A DNA stretch of 57,651 bases, the filler included, from Sphacelaria rigidula (Eukaryota): NCBI GenBank assembly GCA_964200075.2. It is 5 parts of 5 records of this genome, joined end to end, with 100 filler letters (N's around TTAATTAATTAA, not from the genome) between each part and the next. Parts side by side here need not be neighbours in the genome. Positions count along the whole stretch, not along the records: positions 23,103 to 34,552 come from CAXNAA020004907.1; 4 more parts are not named here. One strand, written 5' to 3'. The notes beneath the pieces were generated by a model, which did no database searches, was not told the origin of the DNA, and was given only the letters and a program-made list of their open reading frames with translations. Below, piece by piece: positions 3,035 through 48,952 of the stretch. The position numbers and the translations under genes are program-made. Each line of letters begins with the position of its first letter. The first letter of the stretch is position 1.

Positions 3035-3388
3035 TGTGTGTTGTCATCCCATCTGTTCTGGACGCCAGTCTACACCTTCCGGTATACGTGGCCGCATCAG
3101 CCGGGGTCACACAGGAAGAAGGCCAACACAGGAGCTCTTTCATTTTCATTTTGCTTTAGTACTTCAACTTCCTTCTGCGGTGCTTGTCTTATTTTTATCG
3201 CGAGAGGGGTTCAGCGGTCCCTTTCCCTCGCCGACCGCAATGTCGAACCTCCTGTACCCACGATTAAGTCGCTCTCCACTCTTAGTATTGGGTCAGAAAA
3301 AATCCCAGATCGTGTGACTGTAATAATATTCGAACCCACGACCCAACCGTCAGAAGATTTCGAGGTTACAAACTGAGCCACCGGGGGG
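3035..3388 (-). mobile_element. tRNA-derived SINE
   Basis: The minus-strand head has an A-box-like TGGCTCAGTTTG (~3369-3380) and a B-box GGTTCGAAT (3328-3336). The ~350-bp body matches a second copy at ~39638-39987. Confidence 0.75.
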
Positions 3389-4334
3389 AACGGCCGTAAA
3401 GTAACCTGAGCAAAAAAATGAGAGGCAGGAAATAAAACAGAAAAAAAAGGGGAAAAGATAGAAACGGGGGAAGTGTTGCGCTGTGCTGTGTGAAAACAAG
3501 GAAATGTGACATCTGTGGTGTTACTCTGCTGCTGTACATTACTTTGAGTGAATCAGAGGATGGTGTTTTTTTTCCTGAGAATTTCGCAGTCACCTGAAAA
3601 AAACCGGGAAAGACAACAAGAACGTTTTTCATTAGAAAATTTCCCATCATCAGTACAAGTTCGGAACATTTTTCTAGCAGGTCGACGTTGACGAGCCCTA
3701 CTCCATGGTGTACTCCAACGGTGGGCATTAAACATACCACCCATGGAGTAGGCCCGCCTGTCGTAAGCGGTTGCGCAGCATATCAGAGTCCTTTTTGTGC
3801 GGATAGACTTGCGTTGCAGGGCTACAACATGAGAGCTGTGATAGTGTGGTGTGCTGTATCTGTTGCACGGGCGAGATGTGGTGTGTGCAGTACAAGCTAT
3901 GCCAGCTGACAGTGATTTTTTAGGATTTCTGGGCCCGGCTGTGGGTAATTCGAGAAGTTAGGCTCTGAAATTTTGACACGTCGTCTTCATCATTAATACG
4001 CACAACCTTCCGGGAGATGCAACGAAAAAAAGGGGGGGAAACGTACACTTTGAGCGATTTGAAGTTTCTGGAAAAACTGGAAAAATGCTATAACTCCGTG
4101 AAAATAAATAAATACGTCGGCATTCGTCTCGGGTTGTTGTACGTACTTGTGTGCAGAAGGTCCTGGTGCAATTTTCGGCTAAAAACGCCTCAAATTGGGA
4201 GCAGCAGGGCACTTCTTGTGTGGCACCGCTGCGCCCCTTTCACCCAAGTGATACAGGAGACTCCAGTTGTGTAGGTCACGATTCGAATCATGACGGATTC
4301 CTATTTTTTTGTTCCATCCGGAAGATTATACATC

Positions 4335-11357: not shown

Positions 11358-11404
11358 CAGGCTTGATAGCACAACAAGGGCCTGCCGGGAGAAAAAAACT
11401 GGAC

Positions 11405-11452
<48 letters not shown>

Positions 11453-11552
11453 NNNNNNNNNNNNNNNNNNNNNNNNNNNNNNNNNNNNNNNNNNNNTTAA
11501 TTAATTAANNNNNNNNNNNNNNNNNNNNNNNNNNNNNNNNNNNNNNNNNNNN
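11453..11552. other. Artificial contig spacer (N44-TTAATTAATTAA-N44, stops in all six frames)
   Basis: Seen directly. The same 100-nt spacer recurs at 23003, 34553 and 46103. Confidence 0.98.
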
Positions 11553-23002: not shown

Positions 23003-23102
23003 NNNNNNNNNNNNNNNNNNNNNNNNNNNNNNNNNNNNNNNNNNNNTTAATTAATTAANNNNNNNNNNNNNNNNNNNNNNNNNNNNNNNNNNNNNNNNNN
23101 NN
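23003..23102. other. Artificial contig spacer
   Basis: N44-TTAATTAATTAA-N44. Confidence 0.98.
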
Positions 23103-23139
23103 CTTCAGCCCCATATTTTGTTTGAACCCCAAAATATAA

Positions 23140-23356
23140 AATCGGCTGTTTGTTGCTGTGTTAAACGATGCCCTCCCCTCCGATATCGACCTTGAAGATC
23201 ATCTGGGAAATGCGATGGCGACCTTCAGGGTTCTGAATGGCAACCACCGGACGGGTGCAGTGCACAACATCGACTGCAGGCGCGGCACGGACACGGCGAT
23301 CATGGTTCAAGTCCATCGTCAGATGTCTCCTGCAACGGAGAGGATGGTTTCTCAAG
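23140..23356 (+). pseudogene. Exon A: ParB/Srx-like core
   Basis: NRLFVAVLND...TFRVLNGNHRTGAV...IMVQVHRQMSPATERMVSQ. GNHR matches the ParB/Srx G.HR motif. Donor G|GTGGGC. Confidence 0.7.
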
Positions 23357-24102
23357 GTGGGCTAGCATGAGTATTTCGTTTTGCTTCCTCTTTTTGTCTT
23401 AATATTCAGATTTCGCTTAGGCGCCTTGGCACGAGGGACATCTAGCCATAGCTCTGCACCGCAGTCAGCTGCGAAGTGTAGAGAATTGAGTGTCGCAGGC
23501 TATGCGGCATAATTACGGGGAAAAAATGGCCGAATTGGCATTTGCGCTTTCAGTCCGTTGTGCCGCGGGCGCACAGTGATGGTGCTGCACCAATTGTGGT
23601 CGTACAAGAACGCATGTCGTACTGTAGTCGCGCCGTGCCTTAGATGGCGCGTAGACGAGACCTCCGGCGCGCCAAGGCGTCGCGCTTGTAGAAAACGTCA
23701 AAGTCCCGGCTAAGATTGTTGTATCCTAAAAGCAAATGAACAGGTTCTCGACAGAAAAATGCGATTTCACCGCTCAATTTCAATTTGTTTTCCACGGAAG
23801 TTTGATACGATATACATCGGGTATAGGTGGGGCCTCTACCGTTTCCCCATCTCCTTTGTTATTATTTTCTTTGTACGTTATTGGTGATCTAAATTTTGGA
23901 ACGGATTATCCTGTATCGTTTTTGTCGACAACTCATTGGAAAATAAGATGTCGAGGGGGGATGATGGGGACTTCACGAATTACCTCATGCGCATCGTGTC
24001 GAAATTTTGTTCAAAGGTACATAAGCCATACAGCATAATCATGTTTCTTTTTTTCGTGACATAACGTTTCGTCTGTTCTCTTGACTCTTTTTTCTGCATC
24101 AG

Positions 24103-24254
24103 ACTTGAATTTGATCGCCGCTACTTCGGTCGAGCGCTTGTTGGTCGATCAGATCAGGTGGTACAGGACCATCGTGAGGGCTGTCCAGCAGGGCCAAGGC
24201 TCTTCGCTTACCGAGACCCAGCTTTGCAATCTCGTCAGGAAGGAGTTCATAAAA
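24103..24254 (+). pseudogene. Exon B: end of ParB domain and first HTH helix
   Basis: Acceptor ttttttctgcatcag. The G|AC join gives SQ-D-LNLIAATSVERLLVDQIRWYRTIV...LTETQLCNLVRKEFIK. An alternative GT donor follows 24258. Confidence 0.7.
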
Positions 24255-25220
24255 GCAAGTGAGCATTCGCGTGTTGCCTACAAGCCACTTGACCACACTC
24301 GTGCCCGTTCGACGCGGGTTTTGAAAACTATTCTGCTGTCGCCGTGAGATACTCAAAACCGTTGGGATCACGCACTGTCGTCGTCGTCGTCTGTAGCAGC
24401 GGTTGATAATCCATCCCTTCTGGGGTCAATTTGTAGATGATTCTCAGTGAGACTAAGGCCGCTTCTCACAGGCTGAAAAAAATGTCTCTGAGAAAAGTCG
24501 TTTTGGTCAGTCTCCAGAGACGTTTTTCAGAACACTATCTTATAAGGCAATTTTTTATTTGAAAAAAAACTGTGGAAACTGGCCGAAATTTGCAGGGAGC
24601 GGGATTTTGCCAAATCCCTCTGCAAAAAGCCATCGATTCGCGAAGACGTTTCTCTATCTGGGAATTGCCGTTCCACAATGCATTTCTCGCACACCGTCAC
24701 AATGGTACAGTCAGGGCTCCATCACGTACTCCTCCCATACAAGCATTGTACAGTCAGTGCAAAAGTAAGTGTGCATGTTGTATGTACAGTATCGTGGCAA
24801 CATGACCGCAGGACAGACAGTACAGACAGTACAGCGCTTTTTGCCTTCAGCGTTACTACCGTAAAATAGCACGATGTCGCCCCTACTGGCTGTGTTGACT
24901 GCTCGTATCGTTTCATGCTAGTCGTGCCCGCCACCGATCGCAGACTCTGTAGTAGTCTGTGTACTGAGAGGCTTGCTACCGCACTGCTAACTGTCGCTTG
25001 GATTTGTTGTGTGCAGCGTGGGACAAACCGTCTGCTGCGCAACACATTACACCGACACGACTACAGCACCAAGCGGCGATCGGCTGAAGTAAGGGTTGAT
25101 ACGCCTATTATTCCGTTCCCTATTATACCGGTGGCTACTGTGCGTGTGCACGTGCGTGTGTGTGAGTGTGCGTGTCTCTGTGTGTGTTGTCATCCCATCT
25201 TTCCTGGGGTTGTCTACGCA

Positions 25221-26477
25221 CACGTGGACAAATAGCACCCTGTAGGACGAGCTGCACAGGGTTCTCCACAGTCTTTGTGAAAGCCCCTGTGCAGCATTTG
25301 CAAACCCTAGTACCTGCAATAGCATTTTGCATAGCGTTTTTGTCGAAACCCTGCAAGCAACCCTGTGGAGAGGCCTTCCCAATTTCGGAAATTCCGAATT
25401 ATTTTGATATAAAATCTGTACATATTTACTTTTTTGAATAGCTTCTCCTGCTGTTCGAGATAAATCCTCTTTTTGCCCGATTCAGATCGGGCAAAAATGA
25501 ATTTATCTCGAACAGCAGGAGAAGCTATTCAAAATAGATCCTTTTTTCGCCCCTTTAAATTGGGGAGAAAAAGTGATCCATTTCGAACAGCTTATTCTCC
25601 TGCGCAAATCCCATGCACACTGGCAGATTTGGAATTAAAACAGCAAAAAAAGCTCAAAATAAATGTTCACTTTGCCCTCCAATTTCATTCGGAAATTGCG
25701 GGAAAAGAGATTCATTGCAAGCAGCGTCAGCTGTGCATACCCCGCATACTGCACCGTTACCAGCGTATGGGATCATACACGCAACAAACGTTGTTGAGAG
25801 CAACTCATCCTATAGCCACAAATGATGAATGTTTCTCAACAGCTTTCGCTGAGTGGAGATCCCACACATTGGTTACGTGTGTATGCCCACACCTGTGCGT
25901 ACACCACAAACTCGGCATGATAAGATGCTAGCGGAACGGTGTATACCTCGCACATCAATCCACATTGCTTTTGAAAACCCCGTGGTGCGCAGTCTACCAA
26001 AATCTCTCAACCGAGTATGCCTTTGTTCAGAGAGGTTTTCTCTTGATAGTTATTAGAAGTAGAAAGTAGTTCGTTCAATACAACAAATCAGGTACCTCAA
26101 TGTGTACACTGACGCAATCCACCGCACTCAATCGTGAGTTCGAGTCCTACTGCAGCTATTTCTTTACCGTTTTTTTCTGCCAGTACCATGCCCATAATGT
26201 ATGGAGTACTTTGTATGTGCGCTGTAAAGGCTGTACAGCATATAACAGCGATGAAATCTACACGGAGTGATGACGCCCTGTGAAGCGCCCTGTGTGGCAC
26301 AAAATAATACCCTACAGTCAAATCCCCGCGAGAAACCCTGCACAATTTCCCTGAAACCCTGTGAAGCGTCCTGTGGGGCGCAAAAACAACAAATACAGCC
26401 AAATCCCCGCGAGAAACACTACACAGTTTCCCTGAACCCTGTAGACGTGCCTCCACAGGGTGCTATTTGTCCATGTG
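25221..26477. mobile_element. Nested non-autonomous TIR element with CAC...GTG ends and subterminal repeats
   Basis: cacgtggacaaatagcaccctgt versus right-end reverse complement cacatggacaaatagcaccctgt. Two ~80-bp tandem units at ~26276-26442, plus an internal palindrome. Confidence 0.7.
25432..25534. repeat. ~100-bp near-perfect palindrome
   Basis: ttttgaatagcttctcctgctgttcgagataaat..ttttgcccgat-tcag-atcgggcaaaa..atttatctcgaacagcaggagaagctattcaaaa. Confidence 0.9.
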
Positions 26478-26788
26478 TACGTGTTGGTTTACCTCAGGTG
26501 ACTCAAGCACGAAATGCAAATGATGACAACTACCACCGCCTGCACGCAGGTTAGATGATGGCCTCGGGTGTACAAATCCCCAGGATGTTTTCAAAGTCTG
26601 AAAGGGTGGGTTCTGAAGACTTTTTTTCTCTATAAACGTCTCTGAGGATAGTCGTTCAGATAATTTTTTCAGTCTACAAGAAACAGCCTTAAGTACCTAA
26701 AGCATCGTGTCTTGAACTCCAGGGCCCACTCGAGTGCATTATGCTCGGCGCTGTGACCGCTTCCCTCCGTTGTTCCCTCGGCCAACAG

Positions 26789-27027
26789 CAAAAAGAAAAG
26801 CCACCTGTCAAAAAAACCCTTACAAAGTACATCAACATCGCCACCAACTTCAAGGAAGCCGCGCTCGACGTATTCTTGGACACCAGCTATCTCAACGGCC
26901 GCAACGATAAGCACCCGAACGTCAAACGTTTCGACCGCAAGAGAGTGACGCTCAAGATGGCCGGCAGGCCAGAGTTTCTCAAAATGAAGGAGCACGAGCA
27001 GGAGGTCTACATCTACCGCTTGGCAAG
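26789..27027 (+). pseudogene. Exon C: recognition-helix-like segment of a ParB-type HTH
   Basis: caacag|QKEKPPVKKTLTKYINIATNFKEAALDVF...YIYRLAR. Donor AG|GTACGG. Confidence 0.7.
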
Positions 27028-27257
27028 GTACGGCTGGTTGTGCGTGCCTCTGGCTTTGTTACAGTCATGTGTTCAAACCTTCTAGCCGGCTTGATGGCAC
27101 TCATGCTTGAGCTTTTCTTGTCGATCCAACTCCTATTTTCGCAGAGCACGCCCGATGGGCGTCTGTCTAGCTGGAGCAATCGTTAGCTGTGCCTTCAAAT
27201 CCGACGTTTGTACATCTTTATTGTTGTTGGCCATAAGCTGCGCCTTCGCACTTGGAG

Positions 27258-27799
27258 GCTCGCGTATTCTTACAAGAAGATCGAAGACGCAGCGAAGGCA
27301 GCAAAGAAAGCGGAGGGGGATTCAGCCCAGGCGGAACAGCCACCTGCCAAAGACGTCACTGCCAGCAAAGCGCCTGCTAATGCTCCTGCCGAGACACCTA
27401 CGGCAACGACGGCGGCGACGCCTGCTACGACGACGGCGGCGACGCCTGCATCGGAGCCGGAGAGTTCGACAGGTGAATGAGTACCGTGCCCCCGACGTTC
27501 GTAAACAAGGCATCACGTGTAGCGGAGGATGCGCGTATATCGGCAGCATATTGTGAGTACGTTTCCGAGCAGAAGAGAACCTAACCCATACTTCACATCT
27601 GCGGGGAGCGGCACCCTCGCCCGCATGCGGTTTCTTCTGTGTTCCGTACGATTACCGATTAACAGGAAATATCCAAACGCGGCCCACCCTTACACGTTTC
27701 GATTGTGTTTCGGTGTGCAGGAAAACGGAAGAGATCCTCGACTCTAGCACCCGTCGTCCCCCCTGAGGTAGACAACACCGGGAGACAAGAACAGCTGAG
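27258..27799 (+). pseudogene. Exons D (27258-27472) and E (27721-27799): Ala/Thr/Pro-rich linker and GKRKR
   Basis: Donors G|GTGAAT and AG|GTAAGA, acceptor gtgcag, phases consistent. The exon D acceptor (GAG) is weak. Confidence 0.65.
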
Positions 27800-28017
27800 G
27801 TAAGAAGGATATCGGCTTGCACGGTGCATCGTTAAAATCGCATGCAAAATACCTGCATTATTTTCTACGAACAATGTCTTCATCGGTATGTCTTACCGTG
27901 CAATGGTGCATCACCTCGTTTTGTGTCTTGATTGAACCGTATGCACAAACCTAAACCGACCTTGCTGTATGTTTCAGCGCGCGCGTCGATGTTTTCGTAT
28001 ATTTTCTTCATGAATAG

Positions 28018-29432
28018 GGCGGCTGTAGCGGAAACGCAGGAGCTGAACGTGCTACTGGCTTCGTAGAATACCCAAGAATCCCCACTTACAGCGGAACCAG
28101 AGTCCATTAAGCTGCTGTTCTTCAACGTCGCGTCTGACCCCTCCGTTCTTGACGACACAACGGCTGCGGAAACTCGACTAGTATGAACGTTGACTGAACT
28201 TCACGGTCTGCTTCACCAGCAAGGCACCCTCGCTATTCCGCTGAAATGTACGACGGCGAAATTCCCCCACCTTCGCCGTGAGTACGAGTTCATTTTGTTC
28301 TGGTGAATGGCAACTACCCCACGACTGGCTATTCCAAACCCTGTTCACGATACGTCGCCTGGCCTCGATCTTACAATCGTACCCAATTGAGAAGCTAAAG
28401 CCTCTAGACTTACTACACAAGTGCGCCATGCGTCTTGCCAGTGAGTAAGACACCATATCTTGTCGTGGTGCAGTCGTTGGAGTAACATTCGCTAGCTTGG
28501 AGCCGCCACAGGAGGTGTTTTGCGGCACCTCGAGATCGAGAATTCAAAGTGGTGCTGTTTTACAGAGTGCGCTTGCCGCGCCGTCTCGTTGCTTCTCCTC
28601 GCTCCTCTCCCGTTCCTCTCTTCTCCTCACGTTGGTGTAGCTCACGACTTGTGCTTTCCCTCGCCTCATGGTCTCGTTGCTGGATTGGAAAACGCAGGTG
28701 TACTACAGAGTGTGGAGTTCAAAACCGAGGAGTTTCCATGTTCTACCCTCTACTTGGAAGGGCAAGGTGGACGGGTGGCTGCCGAAATCAAACAGCACTA
28801 CAGACATCAACAATCCTCTGTGCTCCTTGCGCACAAGGCCACCGACTTCACACTTCATGGACGCGCAGTACAGCAACGTCGGGAGATGCGATCGGCACTC
28901 CCCAAGCACCACGATCCGCCGCGAGAACAGAAGTTCGAGGATGTTGGGCTGGTTGTGGCATCTAAGCACCCAGTCACGAAGACGTACCTCCACCCGTCCA
29001 TGGCCGAGCACCTGATGACAAGGTATGCGTGTGTTAGATCCCTTGTTGTAGAGTATCCTCGACCTGCAGGTGTGGAGTATTCAACCCTGCCATGCGGTAG
29101 TACATCGAACTCACTTTGCTCGCCTGGTTATAATAATAGAGAGTGCCCGCCCGGCTATAACACGTTGTCGTTGCCACCGCGTGGTTATCTCCGGCAGATT
29201 CACTGAATCCGGTGATACGATCATGGTAACCGACTTCGGGGAGAACCCCCTAGCCGCTGCCATCATCGAGACAGGACGCCGTCTCTTCGCTTTGGTGTCC
29301 GCAAAGACCGACAATATCGCGAAGCAGATGGATGCTGCGTGCGCAGCCGCAGTTGAACACGGTTGGTTCTCTGAGCTTTGCCCTTCCAAGTCCGCAGTGG
29401 GTGGTGTGGTGTTGCCCTCGTTCTTCCCGTAG
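28018..29432 (+). pseudogene. Exons F-H: beta-class amino-methyltransferase-like fold
   Basis: PESIKLLFFNVAS (cf. DESIDLIFTDPPY); TLTELHGLLHQQGTLAI (cf. LKECYRVLKPGGSLYI); LRRVLQSVEF; SSVLLAHK (cf. EYILVFSK); HPSMAEHLMTRFTESGDTIMVTDFGENPLAAAIIETGRRLFAL (cf. KP..L.ERLI..ST.PGD.VLDPF.GSGTT..AA..LGR.FIG). Confidence 0.7.
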
Positions 29433-29632
29433 CATACCCATCCTCGTGCCGTTACCACGAAGTACGACGGAAATTTGGAGGAGATAGCGGAGAAAAAGGA
29501 AGAATCCGAACAGACGGCAGCGTGTGATAAAGAGCAAGCGGCAGTATAATGCAAGGACACAGCTTGCAACCCAGGGCACAAGCTTGGCAGGCAAGTGTAC
29601 AACCGTCAGGCTGTTACAACTTGTAAATACCG

Positions 29633-30003
29633 TGTAACCTGCTCAGTATCCAAATATCAGCCGAGGTTCACGCAATAGGTTCTTGACTTCTCTCTTAATT
29701 ATCTTGATTCTAACTCCGATACCCACTCAATCAATTCAACCCAGACCAGCCAATATCTCTCACCGATGGTTAGACTTCCTTTTGCTGGCTAGCAGAGGGG
29801 AGCAGTTGATGGTGCTCACGAGGGGGGGTTTGTTCGTGGCTACAGTGAACAAAGCCCGTATCATCCCTGTGATTATACAGGTTCACATTCGTACCCGACA
29901 AACTCTGAACAGACCTGTAGTCTCCGGAACAAACGCACGGCATGGCTAGAATCGACAACGGGTCTGAAGCGGCTTCAACAGACTAATATGCGTCTTCATG
30001 ACA
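29633..30003 (-). repeat. Putative 3' LTR (371 bp)
   Basis: On the minus strand it starts TGTCAT, directly after a G-rich GGGTGGGTTAT tract (30004-30014), and ends GGTTACA. No second LTR is in the contig, so the left boundary is inferred. Confidence 0.6.
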
Positions 30004-30324
30004 ATAACCCACCCAGACAACCCTTTATTACAGCTGCGAGGATTTATCCTCAAAGCAGCGAAAACTAAGGTTTTACTTCACTTGTAAAGTCATGAGCGAC
30101 TAAAGCATACCTGAAGGACCACTCCCGTACCTGGCATTCCCGTACCAACAACCCTGTACCCTACTCCCACACCTCTAAAGAAGGAAAGCATAGACTGCTT
30201 CGAGGAGCAGAAAATAAAAACTGCTCGGAAACGCGGAAGCACAAACTGCTTCGGCGTGCTAGCGATCAACGAAGAAGCACAAATTGCTTGTGCGTCGTAG
30301 CAAAAGTCAAGGGGGAAAACAGGG

Positions 30325-30405
30325 AGGTACAACAGGGAGCAGAGCTTCAACCTGGGGGAATCCCAAAGGTACAACAGGGAGCAGAGCTTCAACCTGGGGG
30401 AATCC
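30325..30405. repeat. Tandem duplication of aggtacaacagggagcagagcttcaacctgggggaatcc in the Gypsy 3' region
   Basis: Two copies seen directly. Confidence 0.9.
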
Positions 30406-30657
30406 AAGAAGTGCTAAAAACTGCAAGACCTAAAATCTGAAAATCGGTGATCCAACGAGATCGAGCGCCAGATGGAGGGGATACTATGGCTCCAGTAGTC
30501 GTAGGTAGCGGTCGTGTCAGCAGTTCTTGATCGTTGCCCGATGTTGGTCGCACCATTGTTGTATAGTAGAAGAGGGTTCTGGTGGAGAAAAGGGGGGCAC
30601 ACAACGCTTACGGGAAAAAATGGGGGTGGGTCAACAGTCGCGACAAAGAAGCGTGGT

Positions 30658-32667
30658 TTAAAGCGGGGCGTGGACGTCGTGGGTGTGGTCGATGTTGCGC
30701 TGGAGACCGCGGCGAAGTCCTTTGGACTTGAGGCGCTGGAGACACCAGGATTCGCGGGGTGCAGATGGGCTGGTGGTATAAAGTGCTGGCCGAAGCTTGA
30801 GCTGTATGGGTCCAGGGTCATCGATGAAGCGCACGATGTATGTGTCGGCCGACACCAGGTTAGCGGAGTGAGTCTGACCCAACCACCAAAGGCTGTCGCT
30901 GCCCTTGAACCAAAGGTAGCTGCCCTTGGGCAGGAGTCGCTGGTTCGCAAAGAACTTCGTCTTACAAGTCTTCGAGGGTACAAGTTCGTAACCATCGGCG
31001 ACAAAGCGTAGTCCCTGGTCGTGGTGAAGTTCGCGGGCTGCTGCGCCACGGCGCATGTTGCGATATTTCTTGTTGTGAGCAAGATACTGATGTTGAGATT
31101 GCGTCCAGTAAAGGAGGATTGTACGACGGTGCAATTGCAGGTCGGATTCGCGTTTCCAAGACGCTCTCCGAGGACCGTGCCAGTGTGTCTTATACATGAC
31201 AGCGATCTTGCCTCCTCGACCACGGGTTATCTGGTGGCCGGAAATGGAGGACACAGCCAACCGAAGGGGCTGTTCCGTCACGTCGTCGGCTGTAACGTGG
31301 TAGGGCGGGGACTTGGTCGAGTAGCTGTTGAGAACGTACTGTGTGAGTACGGCCGGCAGGTACTTGGGCACGTCGCTTGTATCATGCGGGTTCGTGCAGG
31401 GTTTGCATCTGTGCACGGAGACGCGGGGCCCGGTGTCTTTGCCCTGAAAGGCGTGAGGCAAGTCGAGATAGAGCAGTTTGTCATCAACGGGTTCTCCATC
31501 CGGTGATGATGACGATGGTCCGACTGTCAGGATCTTGCATGGTCCTGTCCAATTGAGGGACAACTTTGTCTTCAAAATTGTTTCGTTGGCTGCCTTGCTG
31601 GTGCCTTGGCGAATGGTCGACAAACTGTTGTAGATCCAAACCCGATCACCAATTTTCCAGTTAGGGCGTTTGTGCATGAGGTTGTGGAGACCAGTGTTAG
31701 ATCTCTCCAGGCGCGAGGCATTGATAGCGTGTTACTCGCGCACGAGGGTGACCGCTTTGCGTTGTCGTGTATGTGCGAGCTCGTTGTAGGATATCTGATC
31801 CTGATCCAATTCTTGGTGACCGTCGAACGTGTGTCGCTCGAACACGATGATAGGCAGCCGAGGGTAGCGTCCAAGATGAAGTTCGTTCGGGGAAAGGCCT
31901 GTGACGGCATTTACCGAGTTGTTGTAGGACAACATGATGTGCGAGAGATGTAGGTCCCAGTCAGTTTGGCGGTCATTGACAACCATAGAGAGCATCTGGG
32001 CCATGGTGTGATTAACTCTTTCGGTACCACCGTTACCGGTTGGGTGGTAGGCGCTCGTGGCAATTTTGCGGATACCCAGGAGCTTGTAAAGCTCATCCGA
32101 AAGATCTGAACAAAATTGCTGACCATTGTCTGAAAGTAGTCGCTTCGAGCAGCCGTAGTGCTTAATGTAATCATGGACCAGTATGTCGGCCGTTCCGGCG
32201 GCAGTGAAATCTGCGGCGGTTACCGCGTACATGGACGCGTGACGGCTAAAGTGGTCAGTGAAGAGTAAGATATAGGTGTTGCCGCGACTTGTGGTCGGGA
32301 GAGGGCCGAAGTAGTCAAAGGACACAAGGTGGCCGGGCTAGTCGGGGAGTCCCATAGAGATCACGGGCCAGCGTACTGTATGTCGTGAAGTTTTTCGGGC
32401 TTGGCATTTGAAGCATCGCCGAATCTGAAATCGGGTGGAAATTTCCATGCCAACCCACCAGTAGAAGCGTTCCAAGAGCGCGAGGGTGCGGGTGACATCA
32501 AGGTGGCATGACAAGTCTGTATGGCAGCCTTTTATGACCCAGGGGCGCATTAATAATGGCACATATATGCGCGTTGGTTCGTCATTGAGTAGTCGAGCGG
32601 TGCGTCCCGTAGTTGAGGCGGCAATTGCGCCTGTCAAGGGCGTGGGCCGACGTACGAGTAGTTGCAC
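30658..32667 (-). pseudogene. Gypsy integrase (HHCC zinc finger, DDE core, C-terminal chromodomain and extension), disrupted
   Basis: GCH..SCHL...RFYWW...CFKCQARK; SFDYFGPLP..LLFTDHFSR..LLSDNGQQF..HPTGNGGTERVN; WTGPCKI; VSSISGHQ..MYKTHWHG...SWKRESDL. Confidence 0.92.
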
Positions 32668-33499
32668 GCCTTAATCCGTAGTAAAAAGGGTGCCTTTACG
32701 CACAAGCTCGTATACGTCAGAAATAACTGGCGGTGGCAGTGTTCCAACCGGGGCCAGAAGTGTGGACGGGAATGGAACTGGACAGTCAAGCTGTAAGTAC
32801 CGAATGGCTGCGCGACATAGCGGTTCTGCGTTTTGTTCACGAGCCCAATCACGGTGGGGGTAGCTGGCGAGAAACTCGCGTAGTTGGCCTTCCGCTGGCG
32901 AGCCGACCAAACCTGGTAGGGCAGGCGGCGGGGGAACAGGCGACGCGGCAAAAATGCCGACGTCAATATCTGTCTCGGGAGCAGGATATGAGGCGTCAGT
33001 TCCGCGCTCGGGGGCAGGAGATGTTTGCGGCGCCAGTATGGGCGGTGGGGGTGTATCAGTGCGCGAAAAGATTTTTCGCCGCGCGTGGCGCACGGTGCTG
33101 AAGGTTCTGCGGAGCTTTGCGTGTTGATCCGTGAAACTTGTGCTGGGTGGCTCATAGAGGTTGAAGGCGTTGTTGGTGGCGGCGGGGCACTCGGTGTGGT
33201 GCGGGCGGCGGATCGGGAGCGTGTGTTGTCGGAGATAAGGTGGGTGACTGGGGGTGTCTCCGCGAAGAGTTTCGCGCGAGTACCGAAAGTGCGAAAATCT
33301 ACAAAATCTGGGGTAGTGGGCTTTAACCCACCCAAGACGGCGTCATATGGTAGAGGGCGAGGTCCTCCCATATGCATACCTGTTTCCGGGCACTAGAGGT
33401 CGAGGGCGTAAACGGACGTTGAAAAACGTCTGATCGCGTAGATTCCGGGTTCATCGGGTTCCGTTGAACGGCAAGCCGGGCTGGAATTTGTGGCCGTAG

Positions 33500-33900
33500 G
33501 AGGCAGAGGCAGGCGGGAAAGGAGATCCGCGTTCCCGTTGGTTTTGCCTGGACGGTGCTTAATGGTATATATGATGTTAGAAACTCCACCAACCATCGTT
33601 GTACACGAGGGTTGTGTTCACCAACCTTAGCGAGTTGTTCAAGTGCTCCATGATCCGTATAGATCTCGAAGGGCACGTGAAACAGATATTGTCGAAGGCG
33701 CTTAATGGCCCAAGTGATTACTCCGCCTTCCAGTTCTAGCGGGCTACAATTGGCCTCGTTGGGCAGGGTAGCACGGCTGATATAAAGGATGGATCGGACA
33801 GAGCCATCAAGCTGAGGTTGATTCAAAACTCCTCCAAGTCAATTTGTGCTGGCGTCAGTATGGAGTTGGAAAAGGCGGGAGCCATCTTGTACTGCCTCCC
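33500..33900 (-). pseudogene. Gypsy RNase H, frameshifted
   Basis: FQLHTDAS..LGGV; ILYISRATLPNEANCSPLELEGGVITWAIKRLRQYLFHVPFEIYTDHGAL; GKTNGNADLLSR. Confidence 0.9.
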
Positions 33901-34033
33901 AATCAGGTAAGTAAAGTACGGGCTTTTCGGTAAGCGTCTTGAGTAATTCGCGGGTGATAGTCTCCATTTCTGTGGTGAAAGAAAACACGGCTCCTTTCTT
34001 GAGTAGCTCAGTAAGGGGGCGAATCCGTTTCGA

Positions 34034-34552
34034 TCAATTCGGCAAACATTTGCTGTAGTAGGATAGGCCACCCAACAATGAGCGAAGTCGATAAATGTTA
34101 GCTGGCATCGGCAAGTCAGTCATCGCCTTGACTTTTTGTGTATCCGGGTGCAGGCCTGCTAGCGAAATGGAATGCCCCAAGAAATCCAAGTCAGTCGCGC
34201 CAAGGCGAGCTTTGGATGGAGACAGTTTCAAATCGTGCGTACGTGGGCAAGAGGGAAATTCTCGTAGAGTACGTCTATGTGCAATACGTGAGGCATCGAA
34301 AGCGATAGCGTCATCCAAGTACATGATGATGTGCTCGAGACCCTCGGTGACGCATTGCATTAAGCGTTGAAAGCATCCCGGGGCAGTGGCGGCGCCTTGA
34401 GGCATCCGAAGCCACTCATAGAGTCCGGACGAGGTGCAAAAAGCCGTCAGTGGGACTGTGTCAGGGTGTATAGCATTCTGGAAAAATCCAGAAGCGAGGT
34501 CGAAGGTGCTGAAAATTTTGCCTTCGCCTAAGGGGTCGAGTCATCCTACGAT
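34034..34552 (-). pseudogene. Gypsy reverse transcriptase (partial)
   Basis: KIFSTFDLASGFFQ..TAFCTSSGLYEWLRMPQGAATAPGCFQRLM..MYLDDAI..DFLGH. Confidence 0.93.
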
Positions 34553-34652
34553 NNNNNNNNNNNNNNNNNNNNNNNNNNNNNNNNNNNNNNNNNNNNTTAA
34601 TTAATTAANNNNNNNNNNNNNNNNNNNNNNNNNNNNNNNNNNNNNNNNNNNN
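34553..34652. other. Artificial contig spacer
   Basis: N44-TTAATTAATTAA-N44. It truncates the Gypsy RT. Confidence 0.98.
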
Positions 34653-34825
34653 AGAAAATCCACGTATATCCAAGCTCACTACAGTTCCGTCCTCATCTCC
34701 TGGTGGGTGTGTCAAATTGATGTAGGCGTAGGGTCGATAACGTGTTCACGTCAGCCACAGACGTGCACACGTGAGTAAGTTGATGTGTAGTAACTGAAGT
34801 GAGCTTGGATATACGTGGATTTTCT
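34653..34825. repeat. Inverted repeat at the start of contig 4 (34653-34686 versus 34792-34825)
   Basis: 34 bp with one mismatch, starting at the first base of the contig. Confidence 0.8.
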
Positions 34826-35612
34826 GAAGAACCGAATGGACGGTACTTGCAGGCTACAAGACAAGAGGGTCACTGTAGTTTCAGACAGCATCAGAATGGT
34901 GGTATTGGTTTTCCTTTTTGGATAAAAATAGATGGACATAAATAGGGGGGGCGGGGCGACCGAACCACCACAGTAGAATCCGTTCTGAAAAGAATATTTT
35001 TCCTTGAAAGGAGTGGGTAGCGTTGTCAAGAGCAACGTTGACGAGCAAGCTGGACTTCTGCACCCACCGCGCTATACATGTAGAAGGGAGGAACGCTTAC
35101 ACCACCATAACAGCCCGCGAACACGGGAACGTTACAAATTGCGGATGTCTTTTGTCCGAGGATAAGCCTTGAGCATCGGAATATTTGTTTTGAAACAAAA
35201 GCGTACATACACTTCACGGTCGTAATGTGTGGCCTCGCTCACGCTCAAAATATTCTCACCCGCAAATCGTAAACTTTCGTGTTTGTACCCAACAACTTTG
35301 ACCTCTGTTCACACACTTGCCAGGGCTCGAGGTCGAATCCGGCATCAGTCACCGCAACAAAAACGATAGGCCCGCCGGAGCAAGCGTGCCACCAAACTGA
35401 TGGAGGATCCAACATCAATTCAGTACACACACACACACTGCAGTGATGTATCTCATCGTCGTACGTACCAAAATCTCTCCATCTTCCTTAAGTACGATGC
35501 CGAGGTGTGTAACGGTATTTATACTCATAGGGCCTCGAAATGAGCTAATTTTGTACCACCAGATTCCTTGTCGGTGTAAGTTCTGTACTTGGTCAAACTG
35601 AGCTGCATTCAC

Positions 35613-35759
35613 CTCGTCACGCCCGAAGTGAAGAGTGACCCCCCCGAATAAGGCTGAAGCGTTGGATGCAATGGCGAAGCGAACGTTGTGGAAGATGAGA
35701 CGGCCACTCTCGCCGAGGCCCAGCGAGTTGAACGCAGCGGTGTCGGACACAGTGACGTT
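35613..35759 (-). CDS. Probable internal exon (49 codons) of an unidentified secreted protein
   Basis: cag|NVTVSDTAAFNSLGLGESGRLIFHNVRFAIASNASALFGGVTLHFGRDE|gtgaat, phase 0-0. Confidence 0.45.
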
Positions 35760-36738
35760 CTGGGAACACGAAAGCAACGGCAGGGTGATGACCGGCGAGG
35801 GAGAGATGGAATCACGGGTTCGGGTCCCGGCAGATAGAGACTGTGGACCTCTTTCCAACAAGAGCTGTCTGATTTTTGTCGTCAACACATGAGGACAAGG
35901 GTAGCAAATCGTTTGATTTGCACGAGAGTCCATGTGGTGCGGGAGTGCTGATCCAATCTGCGATACCAAACCAAAACAAGACGTGTGCGGGGAGGGACAC
36001 ATGTTGGTCCCTTGCGACCATGGAATCGTCCTGACGAGGGAGAGAGAGGGAATAAACGTGTGGGTCCAAAACACGCAAAATGAGGGTACTGTAACATATA
36101 TGATGCCCGTGACCGACATTCATTATACACATATAGTATCTTCGATGGGCCTGTCACACGGGAGCATCAGAGGCGTGGGTGAACGCGACGGTGAAGTCCT
36201 TGTACAGTATTACGTGCAATATGTATACTGTACGACTGCTTTTTTTACAGCTGACGGACGCGATGCGTGTCCCCGTCCATTGCGCACACACTCGTAACAT
36301 GTGTTACACCGGTGTACTCTCTCTAGCCGACCATCCAGCGCGAACGGTCACGCAGCGATGCACGAAGGACTGTCGAATCCATCACCCATCGTTCTCTGCG
36401 CATACGTACTGTATCCAGTGTTCCACGGAAAATAGACAATACGACGAGCTGGACAAGCTACACGCTCGCCGTCGTGAAGTAGCCGTAAGTATAGTCACAG
36501 CGCATGGGACAACGTCTTTAGACCAGCACTACACTACAACGAAGATCACATAGCCCGCGGCTCAGCCTGCACGAGATGATAAAGAGTACCATCAGTGAAC
36601 GGGTCTTCTTGCGATCTTGAGCACAGGAAACACCCGCCAAACAAACAGAAAAGCGAAGATTGCGACTTTTGGCCCCGCATTGTGCAAACTCTACCTTCAT
36701 CTCCTGGCACATGACCGGGGCTAGCAGGAGTACCGCAC

Positions 36739-39637: not shown

Positions 39638-39987
39638 GTGTGATGTCGTCCCTTCTATTCTGAACACCCGTTTGCGCCTTTCGGTATATGTGGGCGCACC
39701 GGCCGAGGTCTCACAGGAGGAAGGTCAACAGAGGAGCTCTTTCTTTTTCATTTGTTTTTGGCACCGCACCTTCTTTCTGCGGTGCTTGCCTTTTATTTTT
39801 TATCGCGAGAGGGGTTCAGCATTCCCTTTCCCTCGTCGACCGTGAAGTCGAATTTTGTGTACCCACGACATAGTCGCTCTCCACTGTTGGGCATGGTGTG
39901 AGAAGAAGTCCCAGATCGCTCCAAGAATTGGACCCATGACCCAACCGTCTGAAGGTTTCGAAGTTACTAACTGAGCCACCGGGGCGA
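39638..39987 (-). mobile_element. tRNA-derived SINE (same family as 3035-3388)
   Basis: Colinear similarity over ~350 bp. Head GGTGGCTCAGTTAGTAAC. Confidence 0.75.
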
Positions 39988-42254
39988 CCGGTTCGTGTGC
40001 AGCGGTCATTTCCAAGACTCAAGACTCAAGATTCACGACGTGCGACATGCGACATGCGGGCGTGGGTTATGTGCATTTGTGTGGGTTGTGCGTCCCATGA
40101 CGTGAAGTACTAATCGCACCTGATGGCCTTTTTTTGCGCAACGATCGCATGTTGGGAACTTGCGCCCGGGTTCCAACGCCCCCTGCGTGGAGCGCGATCA
40201 AAGGAGTGTATGTCAGGGTCTCAAAAAGTCTTGAGGCTCGGTTTGCGGTTGCGCAGACCAGAGCCGAAGGCCATGTGCGGCTCCCCGCAGGGGCCACGGA
40301 GAGCGGGAAAATGTTGGGCCTGTCCCCTTCAGAATACCCTCGAAACTGGTCAAAACGTTGATATTTTCCACGGCGAAAGAAGGAGCCTCACCCCCCCCCC
40401 CCCGCCCCCCAAAAAGACCTCAGAAAAAAATCGCCATCGGAGAAAAAGGCCGCAGATGTTTGTTCGCCGAGGCGAAATGACTGCGGCCCGAAATTCATGT
40501 CTGCGGCAAGCCGCAGATAAGACCGTCGGGACTCCGCGCTGCGCGCAGATTTTCCTGAATATCTGCGCTGCCGCAGCGCCGCATGCCCTTTTCGAGACCC
40601 TGGTGTACGTGGACATGAATTTCGGGTTGTGAAGTTGGACGGTGCAACAGTACGACGATCGCATGCGGCGACCATGATATATGATGGCGCGGCAAACAAA
40701 ACTCAAAACTCCGTTGTCGCTGGACGGCACAGCATGAGGACCGCACGATTGGAGACTCTTGGGATCACAAGCACTGACGTACATTCTACACGCACCCACC
40801 CCCGGGTGCATTCGATTTACTGTTAGCACTCGCCCTGCATGAACGTCGGGGGCTGCCGACGGTCTGTTCTTTGTTAGAGCTTCCATCTGCGAGATCCCTG
40901 AGCGTCGGTTGGGCTACAGTATCATATCCTTGTCTGCTCCACGTGGCGCTGTTCCACGTGGCGCTGGCTGGCTGCCTTCCTGTGCACGCATGCTCGTGGG
41001 GAAAACTGAGCTCGCGGGGTTCTCGTGTGCACGGAGCGGCGGGCCAGTGGCGCGGAATCAGTTCAGCGATCGTTCCGCAGAGGGTAGCTAATATTGAGGG
41101 GGCTGAGGAACAACAACTCGGTTTTCGTAACTGATGGATGCCGTATCCTGAAATAATCAAATAATGAGCGCCGAAGTGTTGGAAGCGTTTCATATTTGGA
41201 GTAGGAACGGTGCTCCGTCTCGAAAGGGATACGTGGTCAATGGTCAAATGACGGAGGCAAACAACAAATGAGTACGCCCCCCCCCGCCGGTACATTCCCT
41301 GATCGTAGATGTGGAAGATCCCTAAGACTCACAGTTGGGATGCAGCATCTGGAGCACTTTTGAGACGCCAGCCGGGGCAGTCCGACCGTGTGATACGGCA
41401 CCGCAATCGATCTCGAGGTAAGGGCACCACAACACCCCTGGTGCCGTGATACCGCGCGAGGCAGAAGTGCTAGAGATCGCCAGCACGTGACTACTTTCCC
41501 CTTGTTCCCGGTGATGATTGTGAGTTTCGAACGGAATAAGGCACATCTATATTTGGAGATAACATCCTTTCACATGAACCCCCGAATCCTACGCTCACAA
41601 AATACGAAAAAAAAAACACACGGCTACCACGCTGTGCCCATCTATCGTTGTCCGGTCTCCTCCGGACAGGTGGTGAAGTGCCTGCACCACTCCTTCCGTC
41701 ATCCCGTTCGACACATGCCACATCCACGGTTAAAAGTGGATCTCGATCGACACACTCCGAACGTACAGCGCCGGTGGGAAACCTGAGGGAAATCACCGGG
41801 GGTCACGCCGGCTAAGGGGGCGCAGCGCGAAGATAACTGAGCTCCCCTTAGTACGAAGAAGACACGGCAACTGTACCGTTCAGTACTTCGGAGGCGTCGA
41901 TCTCGTCCGCCGATGGAGCACTCGTAGAAAACCACAGGTTGGCCGAGGCACGTGAGCCGACGCTGGGACTAGGACCGATAGGCGAGAGACGAAGTCCCTC
42001 CGTCCGCGTTGCTGCAAACCGGCGATTGTTGGTTTGACTGCCCCCACCGAGCCCTTCCTAGCCGGGGTTCGTTTCAACAGTACGCCATAACGTTGTTGCG
42101 GGTCTCGAGGTGGTGCGCGTTGTGAGGCTGGAGGACGTTCAACGATGGCGGACGGAACCCAGAACCACAGCAAATGCCCGGGCTGTCCTCGACAAGCGCG
42201 CACGGGAGGAAGCGGCGGGAATTTTCGATACGGTGGTGGCGGTCGGCACATGCA

Positions 42255-46102: not shown

Positions 46103-46202
46103 NNNNNNNNNNNNNNNNNNNNNNNNNNNNNNNNNNNNNNNNNNNNTTAATTAATTAANNNNNNNNNNNNNNNNNNNNNNNNNNNNNNNNNNNNNNNNNN
46201 NN
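46103..46202. other. Artificial contig spacer
   Basis: N44-TTAATTAATTAA-N44. Confidence 0.98.
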
Positions 46203-47017: not shown

Positions 47018-47799
47018 GTAAGTTTTCGTGGTCCCTAGTGCCGGTTTCAGCCAAAATGCTACGAGCGTATTCGACACTGCTGTGCCTAAGATACATCAAC
47101 CAGCAAGATATGCCTTTTCAGCTGAACATGACCCACAACAATACGAAGCATACGAGCAACGCTCTCCCAAACCGCGGACGGAACAATGTCCATGGTGACA
47201 TGCCAATAGCCTGAGCTGACTGACGTTGTTCACATTGATGTTGCGAGTCCCTCCCCCTGTTTTCTCGTAAGTTCCGTTTGGCCCTTCAATCAACTCGCTG
47301 TCCGCCCCGCCTCCGCGCCACCCATACATACCACGCTAGCCCTGACAAGCACCTTTCTATCCCTCCGACCCTACCCTTCTATCAGCGTCGTCCTCGAACC
47401 TACCCTGGTGAAAGAGGTGACCCTCTCATATCGTCGTTTGGAGCGCGTGTTCATCCCCCGTTCCCCACGTAAGCCGGCATCTCTCTCTACTGCACCGCCA
47501 CCGCTTCACGACCGTTGTCCTCGAACCCGTTCTACTTCGTAATGTTTCCCCCATTTTCTAGCGCTCCACATCCGCGTTTGGTTCCTCAAAGGACGAACCA
47601 CCCACCAGCGGAGCAGCTTCTTGTCGTTTTTGGCTGGGTTCGCACCGTCGTCCACACCTCCACATTTCCCTCTTCCTCCGATTGCCGATTTCCCCACAAG
47701 CATCCAATTTGTTCCGTCTCGGAAGAGATGCGTGGTCAATGGTGAAACGACTTAGGCAAGCAACGCATGACCATTCCCCCCCCCCCCCCCCCCCCCCCC

Positions 47800-47830
<31 letters not shown>

Positions 47831-48952
47831 ACACTCCCCCCCCCCCCCCCCCCCCCCTCGCTCCTCCCCCNNNNNNNNNNCCAATTCAGAAACCACCCCA
47901 AGAACATTCCCCCCCCCCCCCCCATCCCCACAAACATCCAATTGTTGATAAATTCCCCCCGCTTTAGCGGTATTAGCCCCTCCCTCTCTCCCCCACTCGT
48001 CTTCCTCCTCGTCTGCGTCACCCATAGGACCACTGTCGTGCTCCGTTGCTTTTCCCTTCGACTTGACGTACCACGCGTTCCTCCCGTTCCCGCATCTTGA
48101 CGCCCAACTTTCGAATTTGCCTCAACTTGAGTGAGTGGTAGGAACCTCTTTTCCGCCCATGAATTTCGCTCCATCGCCGTTATTTCAGACTCGCTATCGC
48201 CCGCGGGTTTCACCTGCATCCCCCCCCCCCCCCCCCCCTCCTCGCTTTTCCTCTCCCCCCCTCTCCTCCCCCCCTCCCCCGCCCGCTCGCTTTTTCGCTT
48301 CGCTGCTTCCTCCTTGTCATCCACACCGTCGACGACAGCATGCACGTTCCTCCCTTACATCACCGGCTATCCTCGAAGGACGTGCTCCGCCTTAGAACGA
48401 GTTTTACCCCAAAGCGATTCGGCCTCTACTTCGCCTAGCGTGCGTCTCCCGTCTACCCCGTCGCCTCCCCATCCTTCGCACCCGACCACTGCCCACATTC
48501 CCTCGTTACTGCTAGCCCCAGTGCTACTTATATTTGACAGCGATTTTTTGTCCATTCTACTGTTGCGCGGACTTGTGCATGGTATGGCGAAGACTATTGA
48601 ATAGATGAGCGTGGGCGCTCAGCGATATACTTGACATCAGGGGCCGCGTACACTGTCATGGCCGGGAAAGCGGGAGGCTTTCTCCGCGCGGCTGCCGTTT
48701 GTCTCTTCGTCGCGAGCACTACTGTACGAGAAACGAAGCGCGGCGGCGACGATGGACGTGTACCCATAATATGTACGTTGGTTTGCATGTTTACCGGCGG
48801 CGATTTGTTGAAGCACCTGCAGGGAGATACCACAAGAGGAGATGTGCGCCGGTCTTGTTGTGCCTTACAAGTCCATACGTATTTGCTCTAGTAGTCAGCA
48901 TCAGAAATATTCGGAATTCGCAGTTGTTATGATTTTTGAGTTTTTCGCGAGC

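Follow-up and report, generated by a model that had tools for sequence, protein, structure and literature searches.

A decayed gene of Sphacelaria rigidula from a brown-algal family whose DNA-methyltransferase-fold domain lacks the canonical motifs and is probably inactive

Description

Here, we describe a decayed multi-exon eukaryotic gene on the plus strand, at about 23140-29430 of a 57,651-nucleotide (nt) stretch of Sphacelaria rigidula DNA (hereafter the window) that joins five parts from five records, with positions 23,103-34,552 coming from CAXNAA020004907.1. We read it as a dead copy of a multi-copy brown-algal gene for a methyltransferase-fold domain that lacks the canonical motifs family-wide and, with a probability of about 70%, is catalytically dead. 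A preliminary description of positions 28018-29432 had reported that NVAS and VTDFGEN replace the canonical motifs, and both peptides are read on the plus strand: NVAS at 28124-28135 (frame of 28010), where catalytic motif IV, (D/N/S)PP(Y/F/W), would lie, and VTDFGEN at 29226-29246 (frame of 29196), aligned by hhalign with motif I, DPFxGxG, in the S-adenosylmethionine (SAM) loop.

Searching 1.84 billion representatives with phmmer yielded 45 matches with an expectation value (E) <=1e-3, 19 at <=1e-10 and 2 at <=1e-30. The six named relatives belong to five brown-algal genera (Nemacystus decipiens, Pylaiella littoralis, Laminaria digitata, Ectocarpus sp. and Scytosiphon promiscuus), and a profile search added a full-length Ectocarpus sp. 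protein of 1014 amino acids (aa), P0046. Full-length members have, in this order, a ParB/DndB-like N-terminus, a helical middle, a low-complexity linker and the methyltransferase-like domain; some also end in a SET-like C-terminus. In DNA runs of the source organism many contigs are 80-95% alike, and the gene is for that reason taken to be multi-copy.

The recognizable methyltransferase scaffold of the preliminary description was recovered by Foldseek, VIA-align and hhalign, and is not seen by ordinary sequence searches. Pfam gave no match at E<=1 for three window frames, and its N6_N4_Mtase model had no match at E<=1 in eight of eight relatives; PDB sequence searches (phmmer and the family profile) found no methyltransferase, and NCBIfam and PADLOC returned no match. 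An AlphaFold2 model of the relative P0010 (274 aa, 51-row alignment; predicted local distance difference test (pLDDT) 78.1, predicted template modelling score 0.74) was then compared using Foldseek, which gave 62 matches at E<=1e-3 with beta-class N6-adenine/N4-cytosine (N6A/N4C) DNA methyltransferases on top, first M.RsrI (E 1.1e-8) and then, in order, TTHA0409, M1.HpyAVI, CcrM, M.MboIIA, rotifer N4CMT and M.PvuII. VIA-align of the same model to CcrM gave Z 15.2 and a root-mean-square deviation of 4.0 over 190 residues, with Z 13.6-14.6 for other beta-class enzymes and about 11 for MT-A70 enzymes. The full-length model of P0046 (pLDDT 51.7 overall, confident over about residues 520-770) has the same top matches (M1.HpyAVI, E 6.2e-9), and a viral structure library returned N4/N6 methyltransferases and a phage ParB/sulfiredoxin fusion. 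As a lead only, 25 of 30 named matches of language-model features are N6_N4_Mtase clusters (score 0.91). The element order in the model (motif IV strand, HP...T helix, beta1 loop, beta2) agrees with the permuted beta-class fold, and as modelled the domain is of this N6-adenine/N4-cytosine type. The likeness could instead be due to chance or to a generic Rossmann fold in another family, which would fit the blank results from Pfam, NCBIfam, PADLOC, PDB phmmer and the profile search, the hhalign probability of 31-69%, and models predicted from alignments of 47-51 sequences. This explanation is hardly credible, however, as the top structures, which outrank other methyltransferases, are circularly permuted beta-class N6A/N4C enzymes aligned with about 190-200 of the 274 residues (Z 14-15), and the result was repeated with a second member and a second library, with element order in agreement.

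Motif positions were assigned against a control alignment of 10 canonical enzymes (E. coli YhdJ and nine phage enzymes), in which the Y of DPPY and three residues of LDPFxGS (D, G and S) never vary (10/10). Alignment of the family to these enzymes by hhalign covered 166 columns (E 4.6e-5, probability 69%); other settings gave probabilities of 31-40%. This profile comparison pairs KHPxxxT with HPTQKP and GDTVMSTAADKDDL (GDxV(L/M)xxxxxxx) with canonical GDIVLDPFAGSFTT, and the register for the window sets V-T-D-F-G-E-N opposite D-P-F-x-G-S-G, in agreement with the preliminary description. DPF and GxG are lost in all seven relatives that cover motif I, which read AFExN or AADKD instead, usually with an acidic residue at the canonical invariant glycine position. 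The window sequence differs at two residues from VTAFDEN of its nearest relative, P0029, and its lone motif I glycine is therefore a private change. For motif IV, 19 relatives were tallied, leaving out P0001 and P0031 (intron read-through or misaligned there). The first residue is N in 19/19, the second V, I, L, F or T and the third A, G or S, with no proline at either (0/19), and the fourth G, V, S, A, M or R, with no aromatic residue (0/19), giving the consensus N-[VILFT]-[AGS]-x. An ungapped register has better support here than a gapped one: S-x-x-L-x-F-x-N parallels canonical S-V-D-L-I-F-x-D, the N closes the first strand of the P0010 model, and the VIA-align ranges begin 10 residues before what we take to be the motif IV positions of CcrM, M.RsrI, M.MboIIA and M.PvuII. 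Neither register yields a PP-aromatic motif, and the patterns [DNS]PP[YFW], F.G.G and G.G[ST][ST] occur at no position in any of 51 family proteins.

The window copy carries lesions of its own. A TGG>TAG change at 28064-28066 removes a family-conserved tryptophan (relatives read S-x-W-N), and CGA>TGA at 28184-28186 removes an arginine that the close relative P0003 retains. The TAG at 29430-29432, where P0046 has serine and continues and through which the tblastn alignment passes to 29450, is probably a third nonsense codon. These three codons (28064, 28184 and 29430) are in keeping with the few nonsense codons that the preliminary description attributed to recent decay. In the exon at 29198-29429, a 2-residue in-frame deletion takes out the family-invariant Asp after beta2. 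This deletion and the private SAM-loop changes (VTDFGEN against VTAFDEN in P0029) would suit an explanation in which the degenerate motifs reflect only the decay of a dead copy, its living relatives being ordinary enzymes. That explanation is refuted for practical purposes by uninterrupted relatives in five genera, which are non-canonical in 19/19 and 7/7 cases and include P0003, whose FFNVASDP is identical to the window. Since the degenerate motifs are fixed in uninterrupted relatives, the motif loss is older than the death of this copy through point nonsense mutations and a small deletion. The proposal that catalytic motifs were lost before the copy died is thus borne out by these five genera, and the alignment of intact homologs that had been suggested as a check gave relatives without canonical motifs.

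By its motifs, the domain is likely to be catalytically dead, and it would neither bind SAM normally nor transfer methyl groups. Alternatively, it could be a still-active methyltransferase with an unorthodox site, writing N6-methyladenine (6mA) or N4-methylcytosine on its own element or methylating another substrate. In known amino-methyltransferases the flipped base is stacked against the motif IV aromatic residue, whose loss cripples the enzyme. The PP-aromatic motif is absent (0/19), as is the glycine-rich SAM loop (0/7), acidic residues replace a G and an S that are invariant in the 10 canonical enzymes, and the Pfam model fails completely. On the other side stand the invariant first N of motif IV (19/19), strong conservation, an invariant Asp near motif II and KHP...T at motif X. 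The available text of PMC12477816 also predicts an N4C/N6A methyltransferase in Ectocarpus: it describes Sola1-1_Ec32, a 21.5-kb giant transposon with an accessory 1104-aa ParB-like plus N4C/N6A methyltransferase protein, proposed to bind and modify its own element, with domains assigned by InterProScan or HHpred. In the accessible part of bioRxiv 10.1101/2025.02.11.637652, red-algal PAG2 relatives are matched by PF01555. On balance, we consider an active enzyme unlikely.

Judged by description and architecture, the family is probably that of the ParB plus methyltransferase gene which giant DNA transposons carry as an accessory (Sola1 in the case of Ectocarpus). Several points weigh against the reading of a dead copy from a catalytically degenerate, transposon-linked family. 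Loss of activity is judged from motifs only, the invariant N of motif IV is one of the allowed catalytic residues, an invariant Asp lies two residues past the canonical motif II acid, and GD precedes beta1 in 6/7 relatives. Motif IV lies outside the confident part of the hhalign alignment, whose low-confidence extension opens a 4-residue gap there, and motif I is covered by only seven relatives. PMC12477816, as far as its accessible text goes, presumes methyltransferase activity. Around the copy no transposase was found, and Pfam matched no family in the part of the window searched for one (open reading frames (ORFs) >=140 aa in 1-23400 and 10 low-stop segments elsewhere); Pfam may lack a model for the Sola1 transposase; nor do terminal inverted repeats flank the gene.

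If catalysis is lost, a non-catalytic role is probable because the fold and a set of near-invariant residues are retained (N at motif IV, GR, AHK, KHPxxxT, R, GR and D). Identity across the family is at least 85% at 29 positions, including N11, G83-R84, H104-K105, P151, T155, R168, G194-R195 and D203 (P0010 numbering), a pattern that speaks for a non-catalytic function still under constraint. The middle-domain exon, which lies outside the methyltransferase-like domain, was compared over 26798-27028 with one contig: 21 of the 25 differences were counted, in 8 synonymous codons (47.7 sites) and 11 non-synonymous ones (183.3 sites), and this partial count gives a per-site ratio of non-synonymous to synonymous differences of about 0.4. 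By analogy with other pseudo-methyltransferases, the most plausible role would be DNA binding or scaffolding beside the ParB-like domain; a modified-base reader role and a ParB clamp role are speculation. Beta-class enzymes such as CcrM act as dimers, and the dead domain could serve a separate, active methyltransferase as its regulatory or DNA-binding partner, in the manner of the METTL14-METTL3 or MTA9-MTA1 heterodimers; methylation would then go on through the other subunit. Such a partnership has precedent only, in the inactive METTL14 covered in the available text of PMC4738411, along with MT-A70 complexes at Z about 11. It seems very unlikely, as no canonical partner occurs among the 51 family proteins or in the window, weak evidence in that the searches saw only relatives of the family.

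ParB-like and SET-like domains

The DGxHR (GxxR) motif is a hallmark of the ParB/Srx superfamily. The N-terminus of P0046 has RVIDGNHRVAAL, against RVLNGNHRTGAV in the window, a DGxHR-type signature after a beta-strand (VLNGNHR at about 23270), for which the phage fusion M.PhiCh1-I offers the comparison motif ADGEHRWRAA. Pfam DndB matches P0046 aa 72-151 below its cut-off (E 0.0066, 16 bits against 29.1), and the ParB-like exon of the window alone has no Pfam match; NCBIfam and PADLOC did not match this domain either. In the Atlas a ParB_N cluster ranks 10th (0.93), a language-model lead only, and residues 1-158 of the P0046 AlphaFold model have pLDDT <50, with the SET-like part also at low confidence. 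The N-terminal domain is probably ParB-like, as its motif suggests. The preliminary description had coupled the methyltransferase-like domain to a ParB-like clamp; the same polypeptide does bear a DGNHR-type N-terminal domain, but the word clamp is unsupported.

Pfam SET (PF00856) matches P0020 aa 331-472 under its cut-off (E 0.017, 16 bits against 22.4), and P0046 has no match to it. The SET-like part (P0046 aa about 800-1014, P0020 aa about 330-522) reads YYMNACDAG or YYINSCEP. In SET domains, NHSCxPN is expected at that stretch, and this second "methyltransferase" of the family may, by this motif, be degenerate too. For the window, tblastn with P0046 aa 800-1014 gave no match at E<=10.

In one scenario for the whole protein, a SET-type histone methyltransferase would be guided to the transposon's own DNA by two DNA-recognition modules, the ParB-like domain and a dead methyltransferase that may still hold or flip a base. 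If true, this would be transposon-encoded self-marking of chromatin that does not depend on DNA methylation, of which the brown-algal lineage is reported to have little or none. We hold the scenario to be doubtful.

Gene structure and surrounding sequence

The ParB/DndB-like core (...FRVLNGNHRTGAV...) is encoded by an exon at 23140-23358 (translation; tblastn of P0046 aa 67-137 at 23152-23358, 37% identity), and the N block at 23003-23102 cuts off the start of this exon and anything upstream. An exon at 24096-24263 encodes the helical region after the core (P0046 aa 135-192, 38% identity), and one at 26789-27028 the conserved middle domain (...KRVTLK...YIYRLAR; P0046 aa 190-269, 45% identity, E 6e-16, with P0005 also matching). 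Between these two exons lies a 2.5-kb intron that holds a 1.27-kb insertion (25216-26482) with 49-nt inverted repeats at its ends that are 78% complementary (pair I11). The insertion, which includes an 81-nt tandem duplication (26271-26432), resembles a small non-autonomous DNA transposon. An Ala/Thr/Pro-rich low-complexity linker follows at 27286-27477, within an ORF at 27208-27480 and with a weak compositional match to P0046 aa 412-481.

Three exons of the gene, identified from splice signals and tblastn of P0046, make up 28010-29429 on the plus strand. The first (28010-28277; P0046 aa 524-601 at 28025-28258; 84% identical to P0003) encodes the first half of the methyltransferase-like domain, with beta4, the motif IV position, a helix and beta5, and ends at a GTGAGT donor at 28278. 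A phase 1 GT..AG intron at 28278-28697, marked by splice signals and a gap between tblastn pieces, separates it from the second (28698-29022; P0046 aa 611-706 at 28703-29026; 80% identical to P0001, phmmer E 9.7e-68), which encodes the middle of the domain (SxYLxGxxGR, AHK and KHPxxxT, the motif X region). A phase 2 GT..AG intron, recognized by splice signals, occupies 29023-29197, and the spliced reading ...HLMTR|FTESGD... agrees with ...NLLTRFTVDRD... of P0029. The third (29198-29429; P0046 aa 705-782, 43% identity, with the alignment of aa 705-791 spanning 29196-29450; hhalign register) encodes beta1, the degenerate SAM loop and beta2.

The frame from 28010 has 6 stops in 338 codons, compared to 11.3 +/- 3.9 in window segments of the same length; 6 or fewer stops are found in 10% of such segments and in 2.1% of shuffles. 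Stop-codon density alone is weak evidence of coding, and the frame is taken as a real gene remnant because phmmer finds relatives. The region 28018-29432 of the preliminary description is thus coding, but in three exons rather than in one frame, with four of the six in-frame stops (28304, 28388, 28442 and 28493) inside the intron at 28278-28697. That description had missed the introns, the SET-like C-terminus present in full-length relatives and the probable status of the family as a transposon accessory. Over 28010-29026, one antisense frame is interrupted by only 4 stops in 338 codons, below the count for the sense frame, which is probably a by-product of codon composition. A minus-strand gene at 26000-30400 was considered and rejected, as Pfam gave only a sub-threshold Abhydrolase_6 match in a low-complexity stretch and no homolog supports it.

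A decayed Ty3/gypsy retrotransposon with reverse transcriptase, RNase H and integrase follows immediately downstream, in minus-strand orientation at about 30400-36400 (Pfam RVT_1, E 3.5e-17; RT_RNaseH, E 7.9e-23; Integrase_H2C2, E 2.6e-10; rve, E 1.4e-7), a span that crosses the N block at 34553-34652, the boundary between two joined parts. Its insertion may have cut off the 3' part of the gene, SET-like region included.

Word-index protein searches with exon read-through (near and longer lengths) gave no match, and a single-exon pattern scan of metagenome contigs produced 143 pattern matches with no relative among them. The contigs of run X8, which comes from one study and is guessed to be RNA, are confined to 26798-27028 and 28696-29009 and diverge from the window at these limits, which coincide with exon limits from protein homology; the first contig has 25 differences, mostly at third codon positions. 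These contigs possibly represent an expressed, spliced paralogue, a lead that is not used as evidence. Nothing points to a viral origin of the domain: among viral structures, phage and pandoravirus enzymes matched best, sharing 8-17% identity, and a phaeovirus enzyme reached only E 1.8e-4.

The window is eukaryotic and repeat-rich, with 5 ORFs >=200 aa in 57.6 kb, and ARAGORN detected no tRNA in it. N blocks at 11453-11552, 23003-23102, 34553-34652 and 46103-46202 consist of 44+44 N around 12 bases and recur with a period of 11,550 bases, so they are not assembly gaps; further N are found at 47871-47880. An 88-nt repeat occurs in three copies (5-92, 41210-41297 and 47709-47796) that are 69-74% alike and each enter a long poly-C tract; it may represent one end of a repeat family not yet classified. 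Poly-C is found at 11404-11452 and 47778-47868, with more poly-C or C-rich tracts elsewhere. A dispersed direct repeat of about 350 nt (3036-3393 and 39638-39991) comprises three adjoining pieces (D3, D6 and D8) that are 80-85% identical.

Comparison with known systems

A literature search found no paper that calls the brown-algal domain inactive, and PMC12477816 was the sole description found. Contrary to the proposal in its available text, the motif evidence suggests that the domain of this family cannot methylate its own transposon DNA, which shifts the focus to DNA binding and the SET-like domain and bears on how giant transposons handle chromatin in brown algae. Like P0046, the Sola1-1_Ec32 protein comes from a brown alga, is about 1000-1100 aa long and multi-copy, and joins a ParB-like N-terminus to an N4/N6-type domain. 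Unlike in our reading, a working enzyme is presumed for it, and the accessible text mentions no SET-like part.

Red-algal Plavaka genes, as described in the available part of bioRxiv 10.1101/2025.02.11.637652, include PAG2 (PF01555 plus SET) and PAG3 (ParB-like plus a 2-oxoglutarate oxygenase). Compared by description, they share with the brown-algal family the set of ParB-like, N6/N4 methyltransferase and SET domains on giant DNA transposons. In the red-algal case the domains are spread over two proteins and the methyltransferase is seen by Pfam, whereas the brown-algal family has one polypeptide with a degenerate domain.

Beta-class enzymes of PF01555 (M.RsrI, CcrM, M.MboIIA, M1.HpyAVI, M.PvuII and rotifer N4CMT) have the same permuted fold and element order and share the sequence around each motif: S-x-x-L-x-F ahead of motif IV, HP...T in motif X, GDxVL before motif I and GR after it. 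The brown-algal family, however, is without (D/N/S)PP(Y/F/W) and DPFxGxG, falls below Pfam thresholds at 8-17% identity, and is eukaryotic with introns. In phage and plasmid ParB-methyltransferase fusions (M.PhiCh1-I; the BFVD phage "ParB/Sulfiredoxin" protein), a DGxHR domain is likewise N-terminal to a beta-class domain, but these proteins keep DPPY and FxGSG and have no long linker, SET-like domain or introns.

The accessible text of PMC4738411 covers inactive methyltransferase domains in eukaryotes, including METTL14 and those of DIRS1 elements. METTL14, ciliate MTA9, DNMT3L and the DIRS1 domain have kept their fold after losing catalytic and SAM-binding residues, as the brown-algal domain appears to have done, and the DIRS1 domain is likewise borne by a mobile element. 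These belong to the MT-A70, PCIF1-like or C5 classes and have other partner domains, whereas the brown-algal family is of the beta-class N6_N4 type and has no known active partner. Pseudo-methyltransferases are already known; the transposon-linked brown-algal family supplies a new variation in which a beta-class domain is combined with ParB-like and SET-like ones, adding a mobile-element-borne N6/N4 case to a short list and revising a published assumption on function.

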